Shown in pieces: positions 1-12,492 of a stretch of DNA of 64,000 bases. Both the position numbers and the translations under genes were made by a program. Below the pieces are notes generated by a model, which did no database searches, was not told the DNA's origin, and was given only the letters and a program-made list of their open reading frames with translations. How positions within the stretch are numbered: position 1 is the stretch's first letter; the number at the start of each line of letters is the position of its first letter. The stretch covers positions 45,083-109,082 of the forward strand of contig JAKLGA010000009.1 of the NCBI GenBank assembly GCA_022710975.1, in the 5' to 3' direction. Source of the stretch: Myxococcota bacterium (lineage in GTDB: Bacteria; Myxococcota; B64-G9).

Positions 1-947
1 AGACCTTCTTCAACCCCGAGACCTTCAGCTGCAAGCTGGAGCCGCCCTTCACCGGCGAGCGCGTGGGGGAGTGGATCGCGCAGCTCAAGGAGTACGACCA
101 GCTCAAGCAGAAGGGGCTCAACCTGCTCGACAAGGTGGTCCATGAGCACCCCGGCTACGCCCAGAACCAGCGCATCAAGAACCTGCGCTACTGGTTCACC
201 CAGGCCATGCCCAAGCGCATGGCCCGGGACATCGGCCTGACCACCCTGCACTACCAGGACGGCCCGAGCGGCTACCAGGGCAAGATGGCCTTCCACCTCG
301 AGCGGGCCCAGCGGTACCTGAAACCCGGGGTGATCACCGAGGAGATGCTCTCCAGGGACCAGCTCATGGAGGACAAGCTCGCCGAGGCCGAGCTCGGGGT
401 GCAGGCCGCCGAGGCGCTGGCGCTGTTCACCAAGGAGTACCTCGGCCAGGACGACGCGGACTACCGCAAGGCAGCGGCCGACTGCCACGCGCTGCTCGAT
501 CGCCTGCAGACCGGGGCCACCAAGGCCATGGCCAACGTGCGCATGCCGGCGGCCAAGTCCAGCGACGCCGGCCTGCTGCAGGTGGCCAAGGGCGTGGTGG
601 CGAAGTGCGGGGTGGGACCCTACGAGCGCATGGTGATCAACTACGGCCCGGCCCACAAGACGGAGCGCAAGAGCGAGGCCAAGGTCGAGGGCGAGTACCT
701 GCGCATCTGGCACTGGACCGAGGAGTGGGACGAGTTCCAGGTGACCCTGGCCGAGAGGTTCGACGCCAGCCCCTTCGGCCCGTCGAAGGTCGCGGGTGCG
801 AAGGCCGACGCGGGCCCCCACCACCGGCTGGTGTTCTACACCCTCAAGAAGCTGACCGTGGGCCCGAAGTGGAAGACCCTGGGCAAGTGGGTGTGCGCCG
901 ACCGCATCGTCAGCAAGAAGATCGCCAAGGAGAACATCCAGAAGTGA
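1..947 (+). CDS. hypothetical protein (5' end outside window)
   Basis: Reading frame of track ORF 63..947 stays open back to position 3 (TFFNPETFSCKLEPPFTGER...), so the gene starts upstream of the window. Protein-like composition (K/W/Y/E-rich, not RGAP-biased). No family recognised. Confidence 0.55.
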   Translation, partial: TFFNPETFSCKLEPPFTGERVGEWIAQLKEYDQLKQKGLNLLDKVVHEHPGYAQNQRIKNLRYWFTQAMPKRMARDIGLTTLHYQDGPSGYQGKMAFHLERAQRYLKPGVITEEMLSRDQLMEDKLAEAELGVQAAEALALFTKEYLGQDDADYRKAAADCHALLDRLQTGATKAMANVRMPAAKSSDAGLLQVAKGVVAKCGVGPYERMVINYGPAHKTERKSEAKVEGEYLRIWHWTEEWDEFQVTLAERFDASPFGPSKVAGAKADAGPHHRLVFYTLKKLTVGPKWKTLGKWVCADRIVSKKIAKENIQK

Positions 948-953
948 GCTGGC

Positions 954-1154
954 TCAGGCGCTGCATTCGCTCGGAACGTCGGAGGCCTCCCCCTCCAGCC
1001 CCTCGATCTTCAGCGCGCCCTCTGCGCTCAGGGCGCCGCTGAGCACCTTGCCGTCGAGCTTCAGCTCGATGCGGGTGTCCTCCACCTTGAAGGTGCCCCT
1101 CTTCTCGTATGGGGTCATGGCGTCCTCGACGAACTCCTTGCCCTTCAGGACCAC
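954..1154 (-). CDS. small hypothetical protein
   Basis: 66-codon ORF with balanced composition (MTPYEKRGTFKVEDTRIELKLDGKVLSGALSAEGALKIEGLEG), co-directional and downstream of the decarboxylase gene. Frame stays open upstream of the GTG at 1154, so the true start is uncertain. Confidence 0.3.
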   Translation of the reverse strand: MVLKGKEFVEDAMTPYEKRGTFKVEDTRIELKLDGKVLSGALSAEGALKIEGLEGEASDVPSECSA

Positions 1155-1352
1155 CTTGCCGTCCTCGCTGAAGTCCAGCTCGAACAGCGGCCCGTAGGCG
1201 CCGGGGGCCGGGTGTTCCGCGCCGCGGCTTCCTTGCGCCCCGCCGCCGGCTCGCCGGCCCAGGCCGAGGCGGCCAGGGCCAGGCAGGTGGCGAGCGCGGC
1301 CGAGATCAGGGAGATTGGCCGGGTCGAGTTCGACGTGATCGGCCTCCTCGCT

Positions 1353-2810
1353 TCAGCGGCGTCGCAGGCGGCGCAGGAGTCCGGACACCTTCTCGAGCCT
1401 CGGCAGGGCCTTGAGCGCGAGCTGGGTCAGGCGATCGCCGGGCCTGCCCGCCTCGGCCCCCAGGTCGGGCGGGGTGCCCTCGGGGCCGTACATGGCCTCC
1501 AGCATCCGCAGCACGTTCTTCTTCACCATGCCCCGCAGCGGCACGTGGGCGACGAGTCCGTACATGGCCGCCTCCCCCTGGGTGGCCAGCTCGGGCCGGC
1601 CCTTGACCTCGGCCACGGCCGTGCGCAGATCCGCCAGGTACGCGTCCACCACCCCGGCGTGGGCCTGGGTGACCATGGCGTGCAGGCAGGCCGGGTGCTG
1701 CTGGCGATCGATGTGCCAGCCGCGCGCGGTCATGCGATCCCCGACCGCGTAGATGTTCACCTGGGGATCCCGGGCGCGGTAGGCGAAGATGGTGGCGTCG
1801 GGCGCTCCGAGCACCTCCAGCTCGGGGATGGCGGCGATCCCCTCGAGCAGCCGGCGGGTGGCGTCCAGCGCCCGGCCGTGGAGCTCGAGGTAGCCGCGCT
1901 CGCCGAGCGACTGCAGGGCGGCCCAGGCCGCGGCGTAGGCCCCGCCCGGGCGGGTGCCCAGGAGGCCGGGCGAGGCGAACACCCCGCCGCACCAGTCCGT
2001 GGTGGCGAAGAACTGGTGCTTCATCAGCTCCATGTCGCGGTACAGCAGCAGCGAGGCGCCCTTGGCCGCGTAGCCGTACTTGTGCACGTCGGCCGAGATC
2101 GAGCTCACCCCCGGCACGCGGAAGTCCCAGGCCGGGATCGGCCGGCCCAGCCGCTCGACGAACGGCAGCAGGAAGCCGCCCACGCAGGCGTCCACGTGCA
2201 GCGGCAGGCCCCTGGCCTGGCACAGCCCCGAGAGCTCCTCGATCCCGTCCACCACCCCGTAGGGGTAACAGGGCGCCGAGCCCACCACCAGGATGGTGCG
2301 CGCGGAGAGCATGCGCCGGACGGCCTTCACGTCCACGCGCATGTCGGCCCGGAGCGGGGCGCGCCGGAGCCTGAGGTCGAAGTACTCGGCCGCCTTGTCG
2401 AAGGCCACGTGCACCGACTCGGGCGCGATGACCACCGCCCGGCCCGGCAGGCGGAGCCGGCGCCTGGCCCGATCGCGGTAGGTCTTCATGGCCAGCAGGA
2501 TGCTCTCGGTCCCGCCCGAGGTGAGCAGCCCGACCGTGCCCGGCCCGCCGTGGAGCAGGCCGGCGCCCATCTGCACCACCTCGGTCTCCAGGCGCTTGAG
2601 GCTCTTGAAGGCCATGGGGTTCAGCCCGTTCTCGCTGAAAAACCGCCCGTAGGCCTCGCGCAGCAGCCGGGTGTGCTCCTCGCCCGCGTGGTAGACCAGG
2701 CTCCAGGTGTGCGCCCCGCGCCAGTCGGCGTCTCCCCGGCCCATGGCGTCCAGCTCGGCCAGCACCTCGGCGCGGGGCCGGCCCTCGGTCGGCAAGCTCA
2801 GGCGGGTCAT
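1353..2810 (-). CDS. PLP-dependent group II decarboxylase family protein, sphingosine-1-phosphate lyase-like
   Basis: 485 aa. Motif SISADVHKYGYAAKGASLLLY matches the lysine-containing SxDxHKYG(F/Y)AxKG signature of S1P lyase / group II decarboxylases. GGAGGG Shine-Dalgarno 7 nt upstream of ATG at 2810. Confidence 0.85.
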   Translation of the reverse strand: MTRLSLPTEGRPRAEVLAELDAMGRGDADWRGAHTWSLVYHAGEEHTRLLREAYGRFFSENGLNPMAFKSLKRLETEVVQMGAGLLHGGPGTVGLLTSGGTESILLAMKTYRDRARRRLRLPGRAVVIAPESVHVAFDKAAEYFDLRLRRAPLRADMRVDVKAVRRMLSARTILVVGSAPCYPYGVVDGIEELSGLCQARGLPLHVDACVGGFLLPFVERLGRPIPAWDFRVPGVSSISADVHKYGYAAKGASLLLYRDMELMKHQFFATTDWCGGVFASPGLLGTRPGGAYAAAWAALQSLGERGYLELHGRALDATRRLLEGIAAIPELEVLGAPDATIFAYRARDPQVNIYAVGDRMTARGWHIDRQQHPACLHAMVTQAHAGVVDAYLADLRTAVAEVKGRPELATQGEAAMYGLVAHVPLRGMVKKNVLRMLEAMYGPEGTPPDLGAEAGRPGDRLTQLALKALPRLEKVSGLLRRLRRR

Positions 2811-2823
2811 GCGCGATCCCTCC

Positions 2824-3981
2824 TCACGGGGTCCAGCCCCGGAGCGCGTAGGCCAGGCCGATGCCCAGGTAGTTGCCCACGGCGTAGCCGATGATGCCGG
2901 TGGTGATGCCGGCCGGGAGCAGCTCGGGGTTCTTCAGCCCGGCCGTGACCACCGGCACGAAGGGCGGGGAGCAGATGGCGGACACGTGGGTCACCAGGCA
3001 GGTATCCACGTCCAGCCGGGCCAGACGGCAGAGCAGCGCCTGCACCAGTAGCGAACCGAAGATCACCAGGGCGACGAAGCCGGCCAGCTCCCACTGCACC
3101 GTGACCAGGGAGTCCAGGCGCGCCTGGGTGCCCACCGCCAGGCAGAAGACCAGCAGGATGTAGAAGCCGAGCTGGAAGGTGCGCTGGATGCGGTGCAGCG
3201 CGGGCACGAGCGAGGCGGCGATGCCCAGCGTGGTGAGCGTCAGGATGGAGACGGCGGTGCGGGCGTCCGTGGACACCTGCTGGCCGGCCAGGAAGGCGAT
3301 GGCCATCATCCCGGCCGCCGCGAGCAGCGCCAAGGCCAGCCAGGCCGCCCGCCGTGGGCGCAGCATGTCCTGGAAGGCCGAGAGCGACTCCACCTCGAGG
3401 CCGGCCGCGTCGGCGCCAGCGCCGCGCGGCCGGTAGGCCCGGAGCAGGCCGAGCTTCAGGAACAGCCGCTGGGCCAGGGAGGCCATGAACAGGATGTACA
3501 CCAGCGAGACCACGGTGTCGTAGGTGTGGAACACGATGAAGGTGTCGTTGGGCACCTGCAGCGCCTTGGAGATGGCCGCCAGGTTGGGGGTGCCCCCGGT
3601 GTACACCCCAAAGCTCATGCCGGCGAGCTGCCAGGCGTCGGGCCGATCGCGCAGCAAGAGCCAGCCCGCCGCGGTGATCAGGCCCACCGCCAGCACGGCG
3701 AAGCCGAAGGCCAGCAGCGCCCGCCCCGCCGTGGGCACCCAGCGGCGCACGTTCGAGCTGAGCAGCAGCAGCGGCAACGCCAGCGCCACGGCCACGTCCT
3801 GCAGGGTGCCCAGCGCGGGTTTCAGGCCCGCCGGCGCCAGGCCGCTGTTGCCGACCGCGATGCCGATCAGGTAGCACAGGATGACCGCGCCCACCTTGCG
3901 GGCCAGGGTGAAGCGGGCGCACAGCCACAGCACCAGCGCGGGCGCCAGCAGGTAGGCCGCGAGCAGCAGGGCGATCGCCAA
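2824..3981 (-). CDS. integral membrane protein, DUF819-like
   Basis: 385 aa, strongly hydrophobic multi-pass protein. TTG start 4 nt after the stop of the upstream acylase gene. Assignment to DUF819 is from memory of the family, not a search. Confidence 0.65.
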   Translation of the reverse strand: MAIALLLAAYLLAPALVLWLCARFTLARKVGAVILCYLIGIAVGNSGLAPAGLKPALGTLQDVAVALALPLLLLSSNVRRWVPTAGRALLAFGFAVLAVGLITAAGWLLLRDRPDAWQLAGMSFGVYTGGTPNLAAISKALQVPNDTFIVFHTYDTVVSLVYILFMASLAQRLFLKLGLLRAYRPRGAGADAAGLEVESLSAFQDMLRPRRAAWLALALLAAAGMMAIAFLAGQQVSTDARTAVSILTLTTLGIAASLVPALHRIQRTFQLGFYILLVFCLAVGTQARLDSLVTVQWELAGFVALVIFGSLLVQALLCRLARLDVDTCLVTHVSAICSPPFVPVVTAGLKNPELLPAGITTGIIGYAVGNYLGIGLAYALRGWTP

Positions 3982-3985
3982 GGGC

Positions 3986-6517
3986 TCACTCTCCGCCCGG
4001 CGCCAGGGTCAGCACGCCGCGGGCGCGCTTGCCGAGCTCGCGCCAGTCCGAGAGCATGGGCACGTACTCCCCCCGCAGCCAGCGGGCGTGCTGGTCGGCG
4101 TAGTGGGGCGAGCCGGGCCAGCCCGAGGCGCCGGTGTCCAGGATCCACAGGCTGCGGCCGAGGTCGTTCAGGTCCGCCAGCATGCGGTGCACCGGCCCGG
4201 CCACCACCTTGTAGGGGTCGCGGCCGTCGCCGATGTCGAAGTGGGCCTTCCACACCGTGTCCAGCGCGCCCGGCATGGGCTGGCGGGGCAGGTTGACCAG
4301 CTCGGCCAGGGCCGCCTTGCCGCCGAAGGGGTGGCGCAGCTCGAGGTAGTGCACCCGGCCCCAGGCCCAGCCCGCGGGCGCCGGGCCGAGCCGCTCGCCC
4401 AGCTCGGCCACCGTCTTCTGGAAGGCCGCCTGCACCACCTCGCGCCGGGTCTCGCGCCGCGGGGTCGACAGATCGTCCCAGACCGGGTGCTCGGGCTCGA
4501 AGAACCACACGTCCATCATGTGGGTCGAGTAGCGCTGCTGCAGCACGAACTCGCGCTGGGCCTCGGGCAGCTCGTCGCTCAGGGCGGCCAGGCCGGCCTG
4601 GCGGTAGGTCTCGAAGAAGAGGGTCGGGGCCGCGGCCTCGGACCTGGCCTCGAGGTCCCAGGCGATCAGCAACCCCAGGGCCTCGTCCTCGGCCTCGCTG
4701 CGCGGGGTGAGGGCCAGGAGGTCCTCCAGCAGGCAGGGCAGCACGCGCTCGGCGCGCTTCACCTTCACGTCGCGCTGGATGCGGGCGAAGGTGCTGAGGT
4801 CGTGCTTCGGGGTGGCGCGCAGCAACTCGACGATGCGATCCAGGCGGTAGGAGGGTGCGCTGTCGACGTGGAAGGGCACGGTCGCCCGCGCGGGATCCCA
4901 GAGCAGGTTGTTGGCGTGGCCCACCAGGGCGTCGGCGCCGCCGGTGAGCGCGGGCAGCTCCTCCGGCGCGGCGAAGCGCTTCCACTGGTAGTCGTCCAGC
5001 CAGCCCGGGGCCGGGAAGGTGCCCAGGTGCCGCTCGCGCACGGGGATGCGCCCGCAGGCGAACAGCTCCACCCCGCCCTGCGCGTCGGCGGCGGTGTACA
5101 CGCTGGAGGGCGCGGCCACCCCGGCCAGCAGGGCGCGCAGCTCCGCGGCGCTCTTGGCCGACTGGCTGCGCCGCAGGCGCGCCAGGCTGTCCACCATGGA
5201 GCCCGGGTCCTGGTGCAGGGCCACGAGCGGGGCGCCCTGCGGCAGCTTGCCCGGGTACACGTCCTGGAGGATCGGCCCGTTGCGGCTGGCGCGCAGGACG
5301 AACTTGCGCGGCTGGAGCTCGTCGCCGTCCCGCACCAGGATCTCCACCTCGCGCCGGGCGAGCGGCTGGAAGCCCGCGGGGGTCTGCACCCGGCCCGGGT
5401 CGGCCGGATCGACGGACTCGAGGTAGAAGTCGACCACGTCCGCCACGGCCGAGGTCATGCCCCAGGCCACCTGCTGGTTGTGCCCGATCAGCACGTAGGG
5501 CAGGCCGGGCACGCTGATGCCGATCACGTCGAACTCCGGGCAGGCGAGCTGCATCTGCATCATCATCGAGGGCAGGAGGTGCGACAGGTGCGGGTCGCTG
5601 GCGAGCAGCGGCTTGCCCGAGCGGGTGCGGGCCCCGCCCACGGCGAAGGCGTTGCTGCCCAGTCCGAAGGCGCCGGGGGAGGGGAGCCAGGCGGCGTGCT
5701 CCGCCGGGCGCGGGTCCGCCGCGGGCGGCAGGGCGCCCGGGCCCGTGGGCAGGAGCGCGCGCACCTCCGGCGCGACGGCCGGCGGCAACGCCCGGAGCTC
5801 GCCCGTGAGCGGTACGCTCACCCCGCCGTCCCAGGGGCGCGAGGGGTACAGGGCCTCGGCCCGGTCCGGGCCCTGGTGCAGCGCGATCATCAGGCGCGAC
5901 AGCTCCTGGGACCAGTTGTGGGTCACGCTCCAGGCCGTCAGCCGGCCCACGGCGAACGTGTCGGACGGCCGCCAGGGCTCGGGCGTGAGGCCCAGCAGGC
6001 GGTGCTCCAGGGGCGTCTGGTGGGCCAGGGCCGCGTTCACCCCGTCGGCGTATGCCTGGAGCAGCGCGCCCGCCTCCTCGTCCACCGCGGCCGCGTCCGC
6101 CTCGGCCGCCTCGTCGAGGCCCCAGCCGCGCATGGCCAGGTCGAACTCCACCGTGGTGCTGCCGAGCAGCGGCTGCTCGCCGACCAGCGCGCTCACCCGG
6201 CCGCGGGCGATGCGCCGGATCATGTCCATCTCGAAGAAGCGTTCGCGGGCCTGCACGTAGCCGGTGGCCCGCGCCAGGTCGCGCTCGCTCCTGGCCCGCA
6301 CGTGCGGCACGCCCTGGGGATCGAGCAGCACCTCCACCGGCGCCTCCAGGCCCGGCAGGCGCAGCGTCTCGGTGTCCGGGCGCGGGTAGTCGGGGCTCAT
6401 CTGGTAGCCCAGGAAGGCGGACAGGGCGCAGCTCGCGGACCCGAGCGAGGCCAGGCCCAGCAGGGCCGAGGCGGCGAGCAGGCGGAGCGAGCGCGTGGCG
6501 CGTGCGGTCGGGGACAT
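3986..6517 (-). CDS. penicillin acylase family Ntn-hydrolase (acyl-homoserine-lactone acylase-like), secreted
   Basis: 843 aa. N-terminal signal peptide (LLAASALLGLASLGSASC). Internal GSNAFAVGG motif typical of the beta-subunit N-terminal Ser nucleophile of penicillin/AHL acylases. Length typical of the family. Confidence 0.85.
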   Translation of the reverse strand: MSPTARATRSLRLLAASALLGLASLGSASCALSAFLGYQMSPDYPRPDTETLRLPGLEAPVEVLLDPQGVPHVRARSERDLARATGYVQARERFFEMDMIRRIARGRVSALVGEQPLLGSTTVEFDLAMRGWGLDEAAEADAAAVDEEAGALLQAYADGVNAALAHQTPLEHRLLGLTPEPWRPSDTFAVGRLTAWSVTHNWSQELSRLMIALHQGPDRAEALYPSRPWDGGVSVPLTGELRALPPAVAPEVRALLPTGPGALPPAADPRPAEHAAWLPSPGAFGLGSNAFAVGGARTRSGKPLLASDPHLSHLLPSMMMQMQLACPEFDVIGISVPGLPYVLIGHNQQVAWGMTSAVADVVDFYLESVDPADPGRVQTPAGFQPLARREVEILVRDGDELQPRKFVLRASRNGPILQDVYPGKLPQGAPLVALHQDPGSMVDSLARLRRSQSAKSAAELRALLAGVAAPSSVYTAADAQGGVELFACGRIPVRERHLGTFPAPGWLDDYQWKRFAAPEELPALTGGADALVGHANNLLWDPARATVPFHVDSAPSYRLDRIVELLRATPKHDLSTFARIQRDVKVKRAERVLPCLLEDLLALTPRSEAEDEALGLLIAWDLEARSEAAAPTLFFETYRQAGLAALSDELPEAQREFVLQQRYSTHMMDVWFFEPEHPVWDDLSTPRRETRREVVQAAFQKTVAELGERLGPAPAGWAWGRVHYLELRHPFGGKAALAELVNLPRQPMPGALDTVWKAHFDIGDGRDPYKVVAGPVHRMLADLNDLGRSLWILDTGASGWPGSPHYADQHARWLRGEYVPMLSDWRELGKRARGVLTLAPGGE

Positions 6518-6541
6518 GTGCGTGGCCTCCCTTCCCCCGGG

Positions 6542-7765
6542 TCAGAAGAGCTTGAACGGGCCGCGGAGGCCGACGCTCAGCGAATCCGTGGCCCGGCTGT
6601 TGCGCCCGGGGATCCAGGACAGGTTGCTGTAGGTGAGCGAGAGCTGCAGCGGCGCCCCCACCCGGAGCAGCGACACCACCAGCTCGGCGGTCAGCCGGTT
6701 CTTGTAGCCCGGCCGCCACAGCTTCTCCTGGGTCCAGTCCCAGAGCTCCGACTCGGACTCCCAGTCGGACTGGAACAGCCAGGTGAAGGCGTAGCCCACG
6801 CTCAGGCTGACGAGCGGAGGCAGGCTGTCCGGGTCGGCCACCTGCCCGCTCAGCCAGGTCTCGAGCACCGGCCCGCGCCAGGCCACCACGTCCAGCACGA
6901 GCTGGAAGCCGAGGAAGTCACCCGGGTCCAGCGAGTAGCGCTCCCCGGTGTAGGGCGCCAGGTCCAGGATGAGCGGGTTCTTGCGGCCCGTGGGCGCGTC
7001 GTAGGTGTGCTCGAACAGCGCCTCGTAGAAGAGATCCAGGCCCACGGTCAGGCGCTCGTCGAGCTCGCGCGGGCGGTAGTCCAGGGCCAGGTGGAGCCCG
7101 AGCTCCCCCTGGGCGTGCAGCTCCCAGCTCGTGGTGCCCGAGGCGACGATCTCCTCGGGATCCTTGGGCCGACCCGTGGGCAGCGCCCCCTGCACGGTCA
7201 GCGCCAGCCCCACGCCCTGATCGGTGAGCGCCGGCAGGTAGTCGGACAGGCGGTAGCGCAGCCCGAGGATGATGTCGGCCAGCACTCCGCGGTTGCCCAC
7301 CCAGGTGCCGGGCCGGGGCTGGCCCATGCTCTGGGCCCACTCCCAGAAGTCCTCCTCGGTGTAGGTCCGCCCCAGCCACCACATGTAGTCCCCGGGCACC
7401 CAGGACAGGCGCGGCTCCACCGTGGTCCGCAGCACCACCGGCACGCCCAGCCCGAGGGTCAGGTTGTCCAGGATGCCGTACTGCAGCTTGGCGATCAGCA
7501 CCTGGTAGGTCACCGAGGCGTCCGGGATGATGATGCCCTGCAGCCCGCCCCCCGGCTCGTAGCGGTAGAGCTTGTCGAGGAGCTGGGTGCGCCCGCCCTC
7601 GTCGTCGTAGGCGTTCGTCAACCAGGAGTGCAGGTAGGCCACGTCGACCAGGAAGGTCTCGGCCGGCAGCGTCTCGGTGGGCCGCCCGGCCCGGGCCGGC
7701 GGCGCGGCGGCCAGCAGGCCCGCGGCGAGCAGCGCCGCGGCGGGCAGCGCGTGGCGCGGGCTCAT
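6542..7765 (-). CDS. outer-membrane beta-barrel protein (predicted)
   Basis: 407 aa. Signal peptide MSPRHALPAAALLAAGLLAAAPPARAG. Alternating hydrophobic/aromatic strands and C-terminal ...GPFKLF (terminal Phe typical of OMPs). ATG at 7765 overlaps the TGA stop of the upstream gene (ATGA). Only the 3' 408 codons of track ORF 6542..9697 are used. Confidence 0.6.
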   Translation of the reverse strand: MSPRHALPAAALLAAGLLAAAPPARAGRPTETLPAETFLVDVAYLHSWLTNAYDDEGGRTQLLDKLYRYEPGGGLQGIIIPDASVTYQVLIAKLQYGILDNLTLGLGVPVVLRTTVEPRLSWVPGDYMWWLGRTYTEEDFWEWAQSMGQPRPGTWVGNRGVLADIILGLRYRLSDYLPALTDQGVGLALTVQGALPTGRPKDPEEIVASGTTSWELHAQGELGLHLALDYRPRELDERLTVGLDLFYEALFEHTYDAPTGRKNPLILDLAPYTGERYSLDPGDFLGFQLVLDVVAWRGPVLETWLSGQVADPDSLPPLVSLSVGYAFTWLFQSDWESESELWDWTQEKLWRPGYKNRLTAELVVSLLRVGAPLQLSLTYSNLSWIPGRNSRATDSLSVGLRGPFKLF

Positions 7766-9657
7766 CGGGCCGCCTCCCCGGGAGGCGCGCGCAGGTCGAG
7801 GGTGCGGAACGCTCCGTCCGTGGCGGGCACCTGGCCGAGGGCGTAGTGCAGCAGCCCCGCGGCCGGCTCCATGATCGCGGCGTTCATGCTGTCGCGCGAG
7901 TCCACCAGCTCCGGGACCGCCAGCAGCTCCTCGGCCGCGGCCGCGTCCAGGCCGCCCAGCCGCGCCCGCACGGCCTGGCCCAGCAGGTGGCCGGAGCGCA
8001 CCGAACGGAAGTAGTAGTTGGTCCAGTAGCGCTGGGGGCGCAGCGTCCAGTTCAGCAGGCGCAGGTCGAGATCCTCCGGGTTCAGCCGGAAGTGGACGTT
8101 CAGCCGCAGATCGTCCGGGCCCTCGCCGCCCAGGCGCCGGCCGTGCGCGTCGAAGCCGGCGGGCTCCTGGGACTCGGGCCGCAGCACGCGGAAGCCCGTG
8201 CCGTCCCCGAGGATGTCGCTGTCGGCCTCGACCAGGGCGAGGTCGCCCCCCGCGTCCGCGAGCAGGAAGCACCAGCCGAAGGTGTAGGGCGCCCCCCGCA
8301 GGCGCTCGAGCGCCTCGGCCACGCTGGTCGCGTGGGTGAGGATGTCGCGGCCGAGCAGCCCCATGGGGACGCCGCTGGACACGAGCCTGGCCAGGATGAG
8401 GTGCTCCCGGAGCTCGGCCACCAGCGGGTTGTCCAGGCTGTCGCACGGGTTGGCCGCGAAGGCCAGGCCCGCCTCGTTCATCCCCGAGTAGCCGAACACC
8501 GCGCCGGTCCAGCCCAGGGTGACGTGCGCCAGTCCGTCGTCCGGCCGGTGCACCAGCACCGCGGTGTGCTTGTGGGCGGTGTTCGAGTCCAGCAGGCTGA
8601 AGTGGTGCGCGAGCAGCGGGTCCCCGCCGGCCGTGGCCGGGCCCCGGGCGGCGAAACCGAACGGTCCGGGTTGGCTGCGCCCGTCGTCGAAGGACTCCTC
8701 CGGGACCTCCCAGGGCGCCTTGCCGAAGCCCGCCGTGGTGAAGCCGAAGCGCACCTCGCGGGCCATGTTGGCCTTGGCCGGGGGCGGATCGGTGATCCAG
8801 GCGGTGTCGCCCGCGGACACGATCACGGAGGTGTAGGCCGCGGGCGGGAAGCCGCCGGGCGGCCGCAGGGTGACCTCGAGCCCCGCGCCCGCCTGGCCGC
8901 AGGAGCCCAGGCCCACGCCCTCGTCCCCGGGCACGAAGGAGGCCCCCGGGATCTGCAGCCGGACCTGGTGCGGATCGACCCCGTCCTCGTCCTCCAGGCA
9001 CAGCCGCAGGCGGGCGCCGGTGGGGATCTCCACCCGGGCCACGTAGGGGGCGGGCTCGAACTCCATGGCGCTCTCGCCCGGCTCGTCGAGCTCGCCGTCG
9101 CCGTCGTTGTCGGCCCCGTCCGCCTCGGCGCCCTCGAAGGTGACGCGGGTGAGGTGGGGGGAGGACTGGTCGCGCAGGAAGTAGGTGATGGCCCGGAAGG
9201 CCACCAGGGTGTCCATGAAGGTGTTGAGGATCAGCACGGTCTCGTAGGGCACGTCCGCCCCGTCGGCCACCCCGCGCAGCTCCTCGCGGTATTCGGCCGG
9301 GATGGTGGCCTCGAGGCTCTGCGCGGACTCCAGGAAGATGAGGTAGGAGAACTGGCCGTCGTCGTAGCGCGCGTCCTGGTACTCGAGCAGGAAGTCCGCG
9401 ATGCTCGGCCGCTCGCGGTTCAGGTAGGGCAGGATCGAGGTGGACAGGAGCTGGGTGTAGAGCGAGCGCAGCTTGCTGGACACCGCGGCCCCGTGCTGGA
9501 AGCCGCGCTCGTAGGGCGTGCCCGTGAGCTCGAGGAGCTCCACGTGGCTGGGCTCCTGGGCTGCCTCGCAGCCGATCGGGCCGCCAGCCGGGCCGACCAG
9601 GAGACCCACCAGCAGGAGGGCGAACCTCGGGGCGATCATGGCGCGGAACCGGAGCAT
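7762..9657 (-). CDS. peptidase C45 / acyl-CoA:6-aminopenicillanic-acid acyltransferase-like Ntn-hydrolase family protein, secreted
   Basis: Motifs LTGTPYERGFQHG and FGYSGMNEAGLAFAAN resemble the C45 (isopenicillin-N acyltransferase-like) family. Signal peptide MLRFRAMIAPRFALLLVGLLVG. Acidic insertion EADGADNDGDGELDEPGE. Start chosen at 9657; an alternative ATG lies at 9639. Confidence 0.65.
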   Translation of the reverse strand: MLRFRAMIAPRFALLLVGLLVGPAGGPIGCEAAQEPSHVELLELTGTPYERGFQHGAAVSSKLRSLYTQLLSTSILPYLNRERPSIADFLLEYQDARYDDGQFSYLIFLESAQSLEATIPAEYREELRGVADGADVPYETVLILNTFMDTLVAFRAITYFLRDQSSPHLTRVTFEGAEADGADNDGDGELDEPGESAMEFEPAPYVARVEIPTGARLRLCLEDEDGVDPHQVRLQIPGASFVPGDEGVGLGSCGQAGAGLEVTLRPPGGFPPAAYTSVIVSAGDTAWITDPPPAKANMAREVRFGFTTAGFGKAPWEVPEESFDDGRSQPGPFGFAARGPATAGGDPLLAHHFSLLDSNTAHKHTAVLVHRPDDGLAHVTLGWTGAVFGYSGMNEAGLAFAANPCDSLDNPLVAELREHLILARLVSSGVPMGLLGRDILTHATSVAEALERLRGAPYTFGWCFLLADAGGDLALVEADSDILGDGTGFRVLRPESQEPAGFDAHGRRLGGEGPDDLRLNVHFRLNPEDLDLRLLNWTLRPQRYWTNYYFRSVRSGHLLGQAVRARLGGLDAAAAEELLAVPELVDSRDSMNAAIMEPAAGLLHYALGQVPATDGAFRTLDLRAPPGEAAR

Positions 9658-9751
9658 GGACGGGCATGTTACCACGGCTGGCCCGGTCGTCCCGCACAAG
9701 AAATACGAGGAGGAGGCCTCTTCGAAGTGGAGGGCGAAGGCGGGGAGGGAC

Positions 9752-9780
9752 GGCTTCCAGGTTGTGACCGCGGGTCGCAT
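9752..9780 (+). promoter_or_regulatory. candidate sigma-70-like promoter for the DUF433/DUF5615 pair
   Basis: TTGTGA (9752-9757), 17-nt spacer, TATGCT (9775-9780), about 50 nt upstream of ATG 9832. By-eye match only. Confidence 0.3.
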
Positions 9781-9831
9781 CGGCTATGCTCAGCTTCGGG
9801 CCGAGGAAGGTTGGCCCGAGGGAGAGGACGG

Positions 9832-10086
9832 ATGTGCCGCGAGGACAAGCTGCTCAAGCGGATCACGGTCGACCCGCGCATCTTCGGCGGCAAGCCCATC
9901 ATCCGTGGCCGCCGCCTAGCCGTCGAGCACGTGTTGGGCATGCTGGCCGCGGGTGACGAGGCGGACACCATCCTGGAGGGCTACCCCTGGATGGAGCGCG
10001 AGGACATCCAGGCTTGCCTGGTCTATGCCCGACGCCTGGTGGGCCACGAGCGCGTCGAGGCCGTTCGAATCCGGACACGGGGATGA
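9832..10086 (+). CDS. DUF433 domain protein (antitoxin-like)
   Basis: 84 aa: RITVDPRIFGGKPIIRGRRLAVEHVLGMLAAGDEADTILEGYPWMEREDIQACLVYA matches the DUF433 fold signature. Only the 3' end of track ORF 7846..10086 is real; the rest is antisense to the C45 gene. Confidence 0.75.
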   Translation: MCREDKLLKRITVDPRIFGGKPIIRGRRLAVEHVLGMLAAGDEADTILEGYPWMEREDIQACLVYARRLVGHERVEAVRIRTRG

Positions 10087-10481
10087 AGGTCCTGCTAGAT
10101 TCCTGCGTGTGGGGCGGGACGGCCAAGGCCCTGCGCTTGGCTGGCCACGATGTGGTCTGGGCGGGAGATTGGCCCAAGGACCCCGGTGATGACGAGATCC
10201 TGCGCTGGGCGCATCGGCGCGGCCGTGTGCTGGTGACCCTGGACAAGGACTTCGGTGAGCTCGCGGTGGTCCATCGGCAGGCCCACGCGGGCATCCTCCG
10301 CCTGGTGGGCTTCGCCGCCCGCCAGCAGGCGATCATGTGCCTGCACGTGCTCGAGCGCTGTGCGGTCGACCTCGCGACCGGCGCGCTGGTGACGGCGGAC
10401 TCCACGGGCCGCCTGCGCATCCGCGCCGCGGAGAGGCCAGGCGAGCGAGCTCCCGCGACCCGCCGTCCCCGCCGCCGCTGA
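10083..10481 (+). CDS. DUF5615-like (PIN-like) protein, putative toxin partner of DUF433
   Basis: 132 aa starting MKVLLDSCVWGG...DDEILRWAHRRGRVLVTLDKDF. ATG at 10083 overlaps the TGA stop of the DUF433 gene (ATGA). DUF433/DUF5615 are known co-occurring pairs. Confidence 0.7.
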   Translation: MKVLLDSCVWGGTAKALRLAGHDVVWAGDWPKDPGDDEILRWAHRRGRVLVTLDKDFGELAVVHRQAHAGILRLVGFAARQQAIMCLHVLERCAVDLATGALVTADSTGRLRIRAAERPGERAPATRRPRRR

Positions 10482-10626
10482 CCAGGTTTCCGCCTCCATC
10501 TCGAGGGAGTGCGACCCCGGCGCTCCCAGCAGTCTAGAAATTCAGGCCGTGGCACGGCGGGTAATTCTGATCGGGTCCTTACCCTGACAGAAGGACGTAC
10601 GGGATTGTGTTCGTGGACGGGCGGGC

Positions 10627-12492
10627 TCAGTCGGTCTCGTCGTCGTCCCTGTCCTTGTCGTCCTTGCGGCCGCGGCGGATGTCCTTGGAGCGCATGTTGG
10701 CGGGCAGGAACTTCTTGCGTACGCGGATGGCCTTGGGGGTCAGCTCCACGAACTCGTTCTCGCCCACGAACTCGATGGCGCTCTCGATGCTGAGCTCGCG
10801 CGCCGGGGTCAGGATGATGTTCTCGTCCTTGCCGGCCGCGCGCAGGTTGGTGAGCTTCCGCCCGCGGGTGCAATTGATGTTGAGGTCGTTCTTGCGGGTG
10901 TGCTCGCCCACCACCATGCCCTCGTAGACCGGGACGCCCGGGCCGACGAACAGGGTGCCGCGCGCCTGCAGGTGGAACAGCCCGTAGGCCACGGTCTCAC
11001 CCTCGCGGTCGGCGACCAGGGAGCCGTTGCGGCTGAGCACGATCGGCCCCAGCCAGGGGATCCAGCCGTCGAAGGCGGTGCTCATCAGCCCCTCGCCGCG
11101 GGTCTCGGTCAAAAAGTCCGAGTGGAAGCCGATCAGCCCGCGGGTGGGGATGCGGAAGGTCAGCCGGGCCCGGCCGCGCGTGCGGGACATGTCGATGAGC
11201 CGGCCCTTGCGCCGCCCGAGCACCTCGGTCAGCGTGCCCAGCACCGTGTCCGGGCAGTCGATGGTCAGCAGCTCCACCGGCTCGTGCAGCTTGCCGTCGA
11301 TCTCGCGGGTGACCACCTCGGGCCGGGAGAGCATCAGCTCGTAGCCCTCGCGGATCATGGTCTCGGCCAGGATGGCGAGCTGCAGCTCGCCGCGGCCCAC
11401 CACCCGGTAGCCCTCGCCGCCCTCGATGGGGGAGACGTGCAGCGCCACGTTGGCCAGGGCCTCGCGCTCCAGGCGGGTGCGCAGGTTGCGGCTGGTGACG
11501 AAGGTCCCGTCCCGGCCGGCGAAGGGCGAGGTGTTGACGTAGAAGTTCATGGCCAGCGTCGGCTCGTCCACCCGGACGCGCGGCAGGGCCGGGACCTGCG
11601 CGTCGGTCACCAGCGTGTCGCCGATGGTGACCTCCTGGATGCCGGCCACCGACACGATGTCGCCGCAGCTGGCCGACTCCGTCTCGGTGCGGGTCAGCCC
11701 GTTGTAGGTGTACAGGCGCATGACCTTGCCCGGTTGCACCCGCCCGGCGTCCCCCAGCACGTAGACCACCTGGCCCGTGCGGACGGAGCCGGACTCGATG
11801 CGCCCGAGCATGAGCCGGCCCACGTAGTCGTCCCAGCCCAGGTTGCTGACCAGCAGGCGGAAGGGCTCCTCGCGCCGGTCGATGGGCGGCGGGATGTGCT
11901 CCAGGATGGCCTCGAACAGCGGCTTGAGATCCGTGGCGCCGGCCGCGTCCTCCAGCCGGCGGGCGCACAGGCCGGCCCGGCCGTTGGCGTACAGCACCGG
12001 GAAGTCGATCTGCGAGTCGTCGGCGCCGAGGTCGATGAACAGGTCGTAGGCCTCGTCCAGCACCTCGGCCGCGCGCGCGTCCTTGCGGTCGATCTTGTTG
12101 ATCACCACGATCACCGGCAGGTGCCTGGCCAGCCCCTTCTCCAGCACGAAACGGGTCTGGGGCAGGCAGCCCTCGGCCGCGTCCACCAGCAGCACGATGC
12201 CCTGGGCCATGGTCAGCGTGCGCTCGACCTCGCCGCCGAAGTCGTGGTGGCCCGGGGTGTCGAGGATGTTGATCTTCACCCCGCGGTAGGTGACGGCGGT
12301 GTTCTTGGCCAGGATGGTGATGCCGCGCTCGCGCTCCAGGAAGAAGCTGTCCATGACCCGCTCGGTCGCCTCCCCGCTGCCCTTCAGCAGGCCGCTCTGG
12401 CGGAGCAGGGCGTCGACCAGGGTGGTCTTGCCGTGGTCGACGTGGGCCACGATGGCGACGTTGCGCAGGTGGGTGAGACGCTCGGGGGCCAT
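10627..12492 (-). CDS. typA: translational GTPase TypA/BipA
   Basis: 621 aa. G-domain motifs AHVDHGKTTLVD, DTPGHHDF, NKID. Co-linear with BipA over the whole length, including the C-terminal domain and a basic/acidic tail. Confidence 0.95.
   Translation of the reverse strand: MAPERLTHLRNVAIVAHVDHGKTTLVDALLRQSGLLKGSGEATERVMDSFFLERERGITILAKNTAVTYRGVKINILDTPGHHDFGGEVERTLTMAQGIVLLVDAAEGCLPQTRFVLEKGLARHLPVIVVINKIDRKDARAAEVLDEAYDLFIDLGADDSQIDFPVLYANGRAGLCARRLEDAAGATDLKPLFEAILEHIPPPIDRREEPFRLLVSNLGWDDYVGRLMLGRIESGSVRTGQVVYVLGDAGRVQPGKVMRLYTYNGLTRTETESASCGDIVSVAGIQEVTIGDTLVTDAQVPALPRVRVDEPTLAMNFYVNTSPFAGRDGTFVTSRNLRTRLEREALANVALHVSPIEGGEGYRVVGRGELQLAILAETMIREGYELMLSRPEVVTREIDGKLHEPVELLTIDCPDTVLGTLTEVLGRRKGRLIDMSRTRGRARLTFRIPTRGLIGFHSDFLTETRGEGLMSTAFDGWIPWLGPIVLSRNGSLVADREGETVAYGLFHLQARGTLFVGPGVPVYEGMVVGEHTRKNDLNINCTRGRKLTNLRAAGKDENIILTPARELSIESAIEFVGENEFVELTPKAIRVRKKFLPANMRSKDIRRGRKDDKDRDDDETD

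Follow-up and report, generated by a model that had tools for sequence, protein, structure and literature searches.

Two short adjoining genes in a 64,000-nucleotide stretch of DNA from a Myxococcota bacterium (contig JAKLGA010000009.1, positions 45,083 to 109,082; hereafter the window, by whose numbering all positions are given) quite probably constitute a chromosomal type II toxin-antitoxin (TA)-type operon of the DUF433 (COG2442)/DUF5615 (COG4634) class, a reading that draws on analogy with related systems that have been tested. The upstream gene encodes an 84-residue DUF433 protein, the predicted antitoxin, and the downstream gene a 132-residue DUF5615 protein, the predicted toxin; their translations and the sequence agree with the original prediction, made from the DNA letters, that such a pair is joined by an ATGA overlap at 10083-10086. 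The interpretation of the pair as a TA module is supported by the Pfam family assignments, the conserved pairing and overlap, the mobility of the unit, purifying selection and the behavior of tested relatives, and toxicity and ribonuclease (RNase) activity are inferred from tested relatives and conserved residues. The finding itself is ordinary, as the pair is an uncharacterised member of a class for which Pfam and NCBI models and names already exist.

The gene pair is a conserved and mobile unit

A scan of one genome per species yielded 539 relatives of the toxin, the best 80 of which (54-68% identity) were examined. These 80 loci are from Nitrospirota, Nitrospinota, Planctomycetota, Chloroflexota, Cyanobacteria, Acidobacteriota, Latescibacterota, Spirochaetia, Bacteroidia, Gamma- and Deltaproteobacteria and Myxococcota. 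At 75 of the 80 best relatives, the toxin start lies no more than a few bases from the end of a DUF433 homologue (E 1e-33 to 1e-41), and the overlap is exactly 4 bp at 65; among the remaining five, four have a DUF433 open reading frame (ORF) upstream, and the contig of the fifth ends 37 bp before the toxin. The description of the pair as a recurrent module with an overlap typical of TA genes is borne out by these counts.

The closest non-identical relative, locus L007, shares 82% amino acid identity in the toxin and 93% in the antitoxin, with the same gene lengths and overlap, and its pair has as neighbors a MutS_V-domain gene and a gene for a CDP-alcohol phosphatidyltransferase, a context unrelated to that of the window pair, which is flanked by typA and a C45/AAT gene. 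In a DNA alignment, the similarity between L007 and the window is confined to the region from the putative -35 box through the toxin stop codon. The transferred unit therefore consists of the promoter and the two genes, about 720 bp in all. A different history is seen in a sister lineage (locus L091, with a C45 protein 84% identical to that of the window), whose pair occupies the same position between typA and C45, the antitoxin being 98.8% and the toxin 91.7% identical to their window counterparts. Because the synonymous divergence (dS) of this pair from that of the window (0.09-0.10) resembles that of the adjacent typA fragment (0.10), the pair must have been inherited vertically since the two lineages split and has been kept intact; a recent insertion at the typA/C45 site was rejected on the same evidence.

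Relative to L007, the ratio of nonsynonymous to synonymous divergence (dN/dS) has a value of 0.096 in the antitoxin gene and 0.166 in the toxin gene; third codon positions account for 26 of 33 and 53 of 86 nucleotide differences, respectively. Relative to L091, the ratios are 0.055 and about 0.45. Judged by these substitution patterns, both genes are under purifying selection. Taken together, the alignments show the pair and its own putative promoter boxes to be a conserved unit, found in many phyla, that has moved between contexts and been maintained by selection.

The gene models are consistent with public annotation. The segment 4083-16481 is identical to a stretch within a 215-kb JGI metagenome contig, and independent gene callers placed both genes at the same coordinates on that contig and on other public contigs. 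The start codon of the DUF433 gene fits homologues of 83-84 residues. The exact DUF5615 protein is present in both NCBI, where it is named 'DUF5615 family PIN-like protein [Myxococcota bacterium]', and JGI, where a homologue (P0002, 82% identity) is called 'predicted nuclease of predicted toxin-antitoxin system'. Both genes had been described as hidden inside an artefactual ORF of 746 codons. This is correct for the DUF433 gene, which forms the in-frame 3′ end of that ORF (7846-10086, antisense to the C45/AAT gene), but not for the DUF5615 gene, which lies in another frame within a 155-codon ORF starting with TTG (10014-10481) and has 4 bp in common with the 746-codon ORF. The real genes at this spurious ORF thus amount to a standard, self-contained TA-type cassette that public pipelines already label correctly. 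A second copy of either gene was not found in the window.

Sequence and predicted structure of the two proteins

Both proteins score above the Pfam gathering cut-offs, as the profile check proposed with the original prediction called for. The DUF5615 protein matches PF18480 with 60 bits (cut-off 23.8, E 2.5e-16) over profile positions 1-107 of 110; it also exceeds the cut-off for Mut7-C (27.4 bits, cut-off 23.3) and falls below that for PIN_10 (22.5 bits, cut-off 26.2). All of 69 aligned homologues match DUF5615, 59 match Mut7-C, 41 match PIN_10 and 7 match PIN (PF01850) at E < 0.01. Residues D6, C8, W10, G11, W26, W30, P34, G35, D36, R48, T52, D54, K55, F57, G58, H68, G70, R73, R112 and R114 are invariant in the 69 homologues, and D23, D33, E38, D56 and E59 are nearly so (E38 and D56 in at least 90%). 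The AlphaFold2 (AF2) model of the protein is confident (predicted local distance difference test, pLDDT, 88.5; predicted template modelling score, pTM, 0.80) and describes a β-α-β-α-β-α-β-α-β-β sandwich, in which D6 is at the end of β1 (residues 2-5), D36 and E38 are at the start of α2 (residues 35-45) and the T52-x-D54-x-D56 motif follows β3 (residues 49-52). The conserved acidic residues expected of a PIN-like nuclease are therefore present, with the invariant D6, D36 and D54 each at one of these three places.

A Foldseek search of PDB with this model gave nothing significant, and sequence searches of PDB with the toxin, both as a single sequence and as a 69-sequence profile, found no relative. 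Because structure comparison was non-specific, what justifies the label PIN-like is the similarity of profiles and the position of the acidic residues, rather than a fold match. The lack of fold and profile matches in PDB agrees with the placement of COG4634 by Matelska et al. (2017) alongside Mut7-C, PIN_10 and PIN_16, in a reduced PIN-like group that lacks helix H3, strand S3 and a solved structure (PMC5499597). The core of the protein spans residues 1-114 and is followed by an Arg-rich tail (residues 115-132, encoded at 10425-10478; ERPGERAPATRRPRRR) with pLDDT below 50, of which residues 119-128 are predicted to be disordered. The tail is found only in the lineages of the window, L007 and L091, most homologues ending 10-18 residues earlier, and it diverges rapidly (54% nucleotide identity to L007).

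The DUF433 protein matches PF04255 over the entire profile (positions 1-56 of 56, residues 11-66) with 79.5 bits (cut-off 23.6, E 1.7e-22). The family varies remarkably little, its consensus being MDExxLLERITVNPKIFGGKPIIRGRRLAVEHVLGMLAAGDTxETILEGYPWLExEDIQACLVYARRLVGHER(I/V)EP, and conservation continues for about 10 residues beyond the Pfam domain. This conserved tail, YARRLVGHER(V/I)E, which lies within residues 65-84 of the window protein (YARRLVGHERVEAVRIRTRG), is probably the toxin-binding segment. The sole relative of solved structure, PDB 2GA1, was matched weakly (E 0.087 with the single sequence, 0.0047 with the family profile). A single-sequence AF2 model is helical (helices at 25-39, 44-50 and 56-70), with a pLDDT of only 65, and gives a weak hint of the fold at most. 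An NCBIfam scan returned no meaningful match for either protein.

The candidate promoter and the ribosome-binding region

The candidate promoter of the original prediction, TTGTGA-17-TATGCT, is present with the hexamers and spacer described, although it had been placed at 9752-9780, which is 10 nt away from the actual positions of the boxes (9762-9767 and 9785-9790; Table 1). A sigma-70 consensus scan of 9500-10750 made no promoter call, as no more than 8 of the 12 consensus positions are matched by the hexamers. Their conservation in L007 and L091 nevertheless supports the proposal at the corrected coordinates. The sequence GCATCGGCTA is the same in the window and L007, and TTG-GAC and GCATCGGCTA---CT remain in register amid upstream DNA that has otherwise diverged. 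The ribosome-binding region, GGGAGAG-ACGGATG, is likewise kept in L007 and L091. Throughout the family, a -10 hexamer with at least five of six matches occurs between -70 and -8 of the antitoxin start at 49 of 78 loci; the distal 62 nt contain one at 8 of 78, and shuffled sequences give 18.1 ± 3.3. A Shine-Dalgarno (SD)-like motif lies between -18 and -4 at 55 of the 78. The enrichment of -10 hexamers indicates that DUF433/DUF5615 cassettes generally carry their own promoter.

Between the putative -10 box and the ribosome-binding site is a perfect palindrome with arms at 9795-9804 and 9811-9820 (TTCGGGCCGA...TTGGCCCGAG) and a predicted RNA folding energy of -19.9 kcal/mol (z -2.07). The stem is identical in L091, the three differences within this hairpin being in the loop, and the hairpin is not conserved in L007, for which reason it is only a candidate operator or 5′ stem-loop. 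Inspection by eye of the 78 upstream regions revealed no common operator motif; only the -10-like hexamers were enriched.

Table 1. Positions of the two genes and of the candidate control elements upstream of them.
Feature	Position	Strand	Remarks
Candidate -35 hexamer TTGTGA	9762..9767	+	Read from sequence; identical in L091; TTGAGA in L007
Candidate -10 hexamer TATGCT, within conserved GCATCGGCTATGCT	9785..9790	+	17-nt spacer; TACACT in L007; TATTCT in L091
10-bp perfect palindrome/5′ untranslated region hairpin, candidate operator or mRNA stem-loop	9795..9820	+	Between -10 box and ribosome-binding site
SD-like GGGAGAGGA before antitoxin start	9820..9828	+	Read from sequence
DUF433 (COG2442) gene, predicted antitoxin/DNA-binding partner	9832..10086	+	84 aa; ATG 9832 to TGA 10086
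ATGA start/stop overlap, 4 bp, putative translational coupling	10083..10086	+	Read from sequence; recurs in relatives
DUF5615 (COG4634, Mut7-C group PIN-like) gene, predicted toxin nuclease	10083..10481	+	132 aa; ATG to TGA

Comparison with known systems and a proposed mechanism

In 2009, Makarova, Wolf and Koonin predicted that the PIN-COG2442 (DUF433) class functions as a type II TA system (PMC2701414), and COG4634 was later placed among potential toxins, together with Mut7-C and PIN_10 (PMC5499597). The window pair shares with the PIN-COG2442/COG4634 class both domains, the antitoxin-first order, the small size of the genes, the wide and patchy distribution and the behavior of a mobile unit, and it shows no substantive difference, its one lineage-specific feature being the 18-residue Arg-rich nuclease tail, common to L007 and L091. 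The original prediction had called the module experimentally poorly characterised, which holds for the DUF5615/COG4634 subfamily but not for related DUF433-PIN pairs, two of which have been tested (PMC3834315, PMC5175181). The genes of VapBC10 of Synechocystis sp. PCC 6803 (ssr2962/slr1767) are co-transcribed, and its toxin arrests the growth of E. coli, from which the antitoxin rescues the cells by complex formation; this antitoxin also binds its promoter as an activator and is degraded by ClpXP (PMC3834315). Like the window pair, VapBC10 has a DUF433 antitoxin gene upstream of the gene for a small PIN-type toxin in a bicistronic arrangement, and acidic residues 6, 40, 61 and 104 of its toxin are comparable to D6, D36/E38 and D54/D56 of the window protein. 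Promoter activation by the antitoxin and ClpXP cleavage have been demonstrated for VapBC10 only. In Mycobacterium tuberculosis, Rv2019, so far the one relative shown to have metal-dependent nuclease activity, is an RNase sensitive to EDTA (ethylenediaminetetraacetic acid) that cuts rRNA and mRNA and is neutralised by the DUF433-containing protein Rv2018 (PMC5175181). This pair, VapBC45, resembles that of the window in combining a DUF433-containing antitoxin with a PIN-like toxin of the Mut7-C group, but Rv2019 belongs to the PIN_10 cluster (PMC5499597) rather than COG4634, the window protein being under the PIN_10 cut-off, and Rv2018 has an extra winged helix-turn-helix domain fused to DUF433 (PMC2701414), whereas the window antitoxin is a bare DUF433 protein.

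Two further pairs are plasmid-borne. Plasmid pLiSL39 of Leptospira interrogans (NZ_CP092744.1, 1399-1656 and 1653-2006; locus L090) carries a RefSeq-annotated DUF433/DUF5615 pair with the same gene order and 4-bp overlap, the toxin of which is 52% identical to the window toxin over residues 1-105. It differs in being on a plasmid beside a second PIN pair, whereas the window pair is chromosomal, between typA and the C45 gene. The plasmid region 1399-2832 as a whole, a DUF433/DUF5615 pair together with a small-gene/PIN-domain pair, makes up a tandem of TA-like cassettes. Plasmid pRet42a of Rhizobium etli encodes RHE_PA00163 (COG4634) and RHE_PA00164 (DUF433), members of the same domain families by their authors' annotation; these genes are part of a region for conjugative transfer that also has an XRE regulator, and the phenotypes reported for them are changes in transfer frequency (PMC4294206).

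On the basis of these tested systems and of the conserved residues, we propose that the operon would be transcribed from TTGTGA-17-TATGCT, with a predicted start near 9797 and with translation of the two genes coupled. The DUF5615 protein would be a metal-dependent RNase belonging to the Mut7-C group, whose PIN-like domains are reduced, with an acidic pocket made up of D6, D36/E38 and D54/D56, residues located at the C-terminal ends of β1 and β3 and the start of α2. The DUF433 protein, predicted to be a three-helix (winged-helix-like) DNA-binding protein, would act both as an inhibitor that binds the toxin and as a regulator of the operon promoter. Once antitoxin synthesis stops or the antitoxin is broken down, the nuclease, now unbound, would cut RNA and so arrest growth.

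Alternative explanations

Several observations weigh against a TA function for the pair. The window DUF5615 protein has no match to the canonical PIN family (PF01850) at E ≤ 1, and an hhalign comparison of the toxin family with one canonical PIN protein, from a Leptospira plasmid, detected no similarity (probability 0.9%); because PF01850 is unmatched, 'VapBC-like' describes the probable working of the pair by analogy only, and not its family. The promoter hexamers, as noted above, are weak. Antitoxins usually evolve faster than toxins, and the reverse is seen here. Among 75 pairs, mean pairwise identity is 74.7% for the DUF433 core versus 63.9% for the nuclease core, and DUF433 is the more conserved partner in 2538 of 2775 pair comparisons, despite the loci having been selected via the toxin; divergence in one partner is only weakly correlated with that in the other (r 0.12). 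The dN/dS ratios (0.06-0.10 for DUF433 versus 0.17-0.45 for the nuclease) likewise show DUF433 to be the more tightly constrained partner in this very highly conserved subfamily. For the DUF5615/COG4634 subfamily, our literature search found neither direct evidence of toxicity or RNase activity nor mention of DUF5615. Finally, single mutants of the pRet42a COG4634 gene and of its DUF433 neighbor are viable and altered only in conjugation frequency (PMC4294206).

The main alternative is a regulatory, non-toxic pair, in which DUF433 would be a transcription factor, possibly an activator, and DUF5615 would adjust the expression of other genes as a mild, specific RNase or a modulator. In favor of such a pair, traI expression as well as conjugation frequency was changed in the viable pRet42a mutants (PMC4294206), VapB10 acts on its own promoter as an activator and not as a repressor (PMC3834315), DUF433 is better conserved than the nuclease, and the pair has been stably retained at the same chromosomal site in the sister lineage. 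We nevertheless consider this explanation unlikely. The self-contained unit moves to unrelated contexts, and hence has no conserved adjoining target gene; the 4-bp coupling and the antitoxin-first order are traits of type II TA systems; and related DUF433-PIN pairs are toxic and are neutralised by their partners (PMC3834315, PMC5175181). Moreover, polar effects of an insertion in the antitoxin gene can extend to the toxin gene downstream, and mutant viability may for that reason not be decisive. The unusual conservation of the partners, the one point possibly of interest to TA specialists, leaves a small chance that DUF433 has a conserved role beyond neutralisation. It is rather improbable, though conceivable, that DUF433 reads a conserved cellular or invader signal or activates host genes, in which case the pair would be no classical addiction system but a sensor-effector or regulatory module.

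Phage defence is a function of many type II TA modules, and the pair might accordingly be an anti-phage abortive-infection module, triggered by phage, whose nuclease shuts down the infected cell. The broad horizontal spread of the pair is consistent with this possibility, as is the presence of DUF433-PIN_10 pairs in defence islands beside restriction-modification genes (PMC5499597), but neither protein matches a PADLOC-DB v2 family at E ≤ 1, and the neighbors of the pair are housekeeping and metabolic genes with no defence island among them. Such a role is compatible with the TA explanation and has no support at this locus, and we regard it as quite improbable. Even less credence is given to an inactive remnant, i.e. 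a decaying TA module without current function. The weak promoter hexamers, the toxin dN/dS of up to about 0.45 in the closest comparison (L091) and the lineage-specific disordered tail added to the toxin could each be signs of decay, yet both reading frames are intact in three lineages, every family-invariant residue is present, dN/dS is well under 1 over the longer comparison with L007 and the promoter and SD boxes are conserved, all of which make this explanation highly improbable. A TA-type operon thus remains the preferred reading. This compact, strongly conserved copy would be a reasonable target for cloning, but thousands of equivalent copies exist, and the significance of this one is small beyond its correct annotation.

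Genomic neighborhood

The pair is located on the chromosome between the convergent typA gene and the C45 gene, and the genes around it encode housekeeping and metabolic functions (typA/bipA, C45/AAT, penicillin amidase, TPR, aminotransferase). As the original prediction held, it is divergent from a C45 cluster, the C45/AAT gene being on the minus strand at 7762-9657 or 7762-9780, depending on its start: two pipelines differ, one predicting 631 residues from 9657 and the other 672 residues from 9780. The minus-strand cluster as a whole (4083-9657, corresponding to 1-5575 of locus L001) comprises a penicillin-amidase-family gene, a gene of 407 residues and the C45/AAT gene (PF03417); the 407-residue product has no Pfam match. 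In the convergent spacer between the toxin and typA stop codons, about 108 nt (about 10500-10607) are absent from the sister contig L091. A terminator scan of 9500-10750 found no intrinsic terminator between the toxin gene and typA, and the spacer folds no better than shuffled sequences (z +0.49). No compositional anomaly that might mark a recent insertion was detected, GC content being 0.67-0.75 over the region; third-position GC is 0.87 in the pair versus 0.99 in typA, a weak hint of insertion at most.

The GC content of 72% between 6542 and 14253 gives rise, on both strands, to many long spurious ORFs that overlap real genes or are antisense to them, and those around C45 and typA include examples of 1051, 746, 1117 and 1001 residues. 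The ORF tracks of the window are for this reason unreliable without homology support. The C45 gene evolves faster than its neighbors, with a dN of 0.10 and a dS of 0.27 relative to L091.

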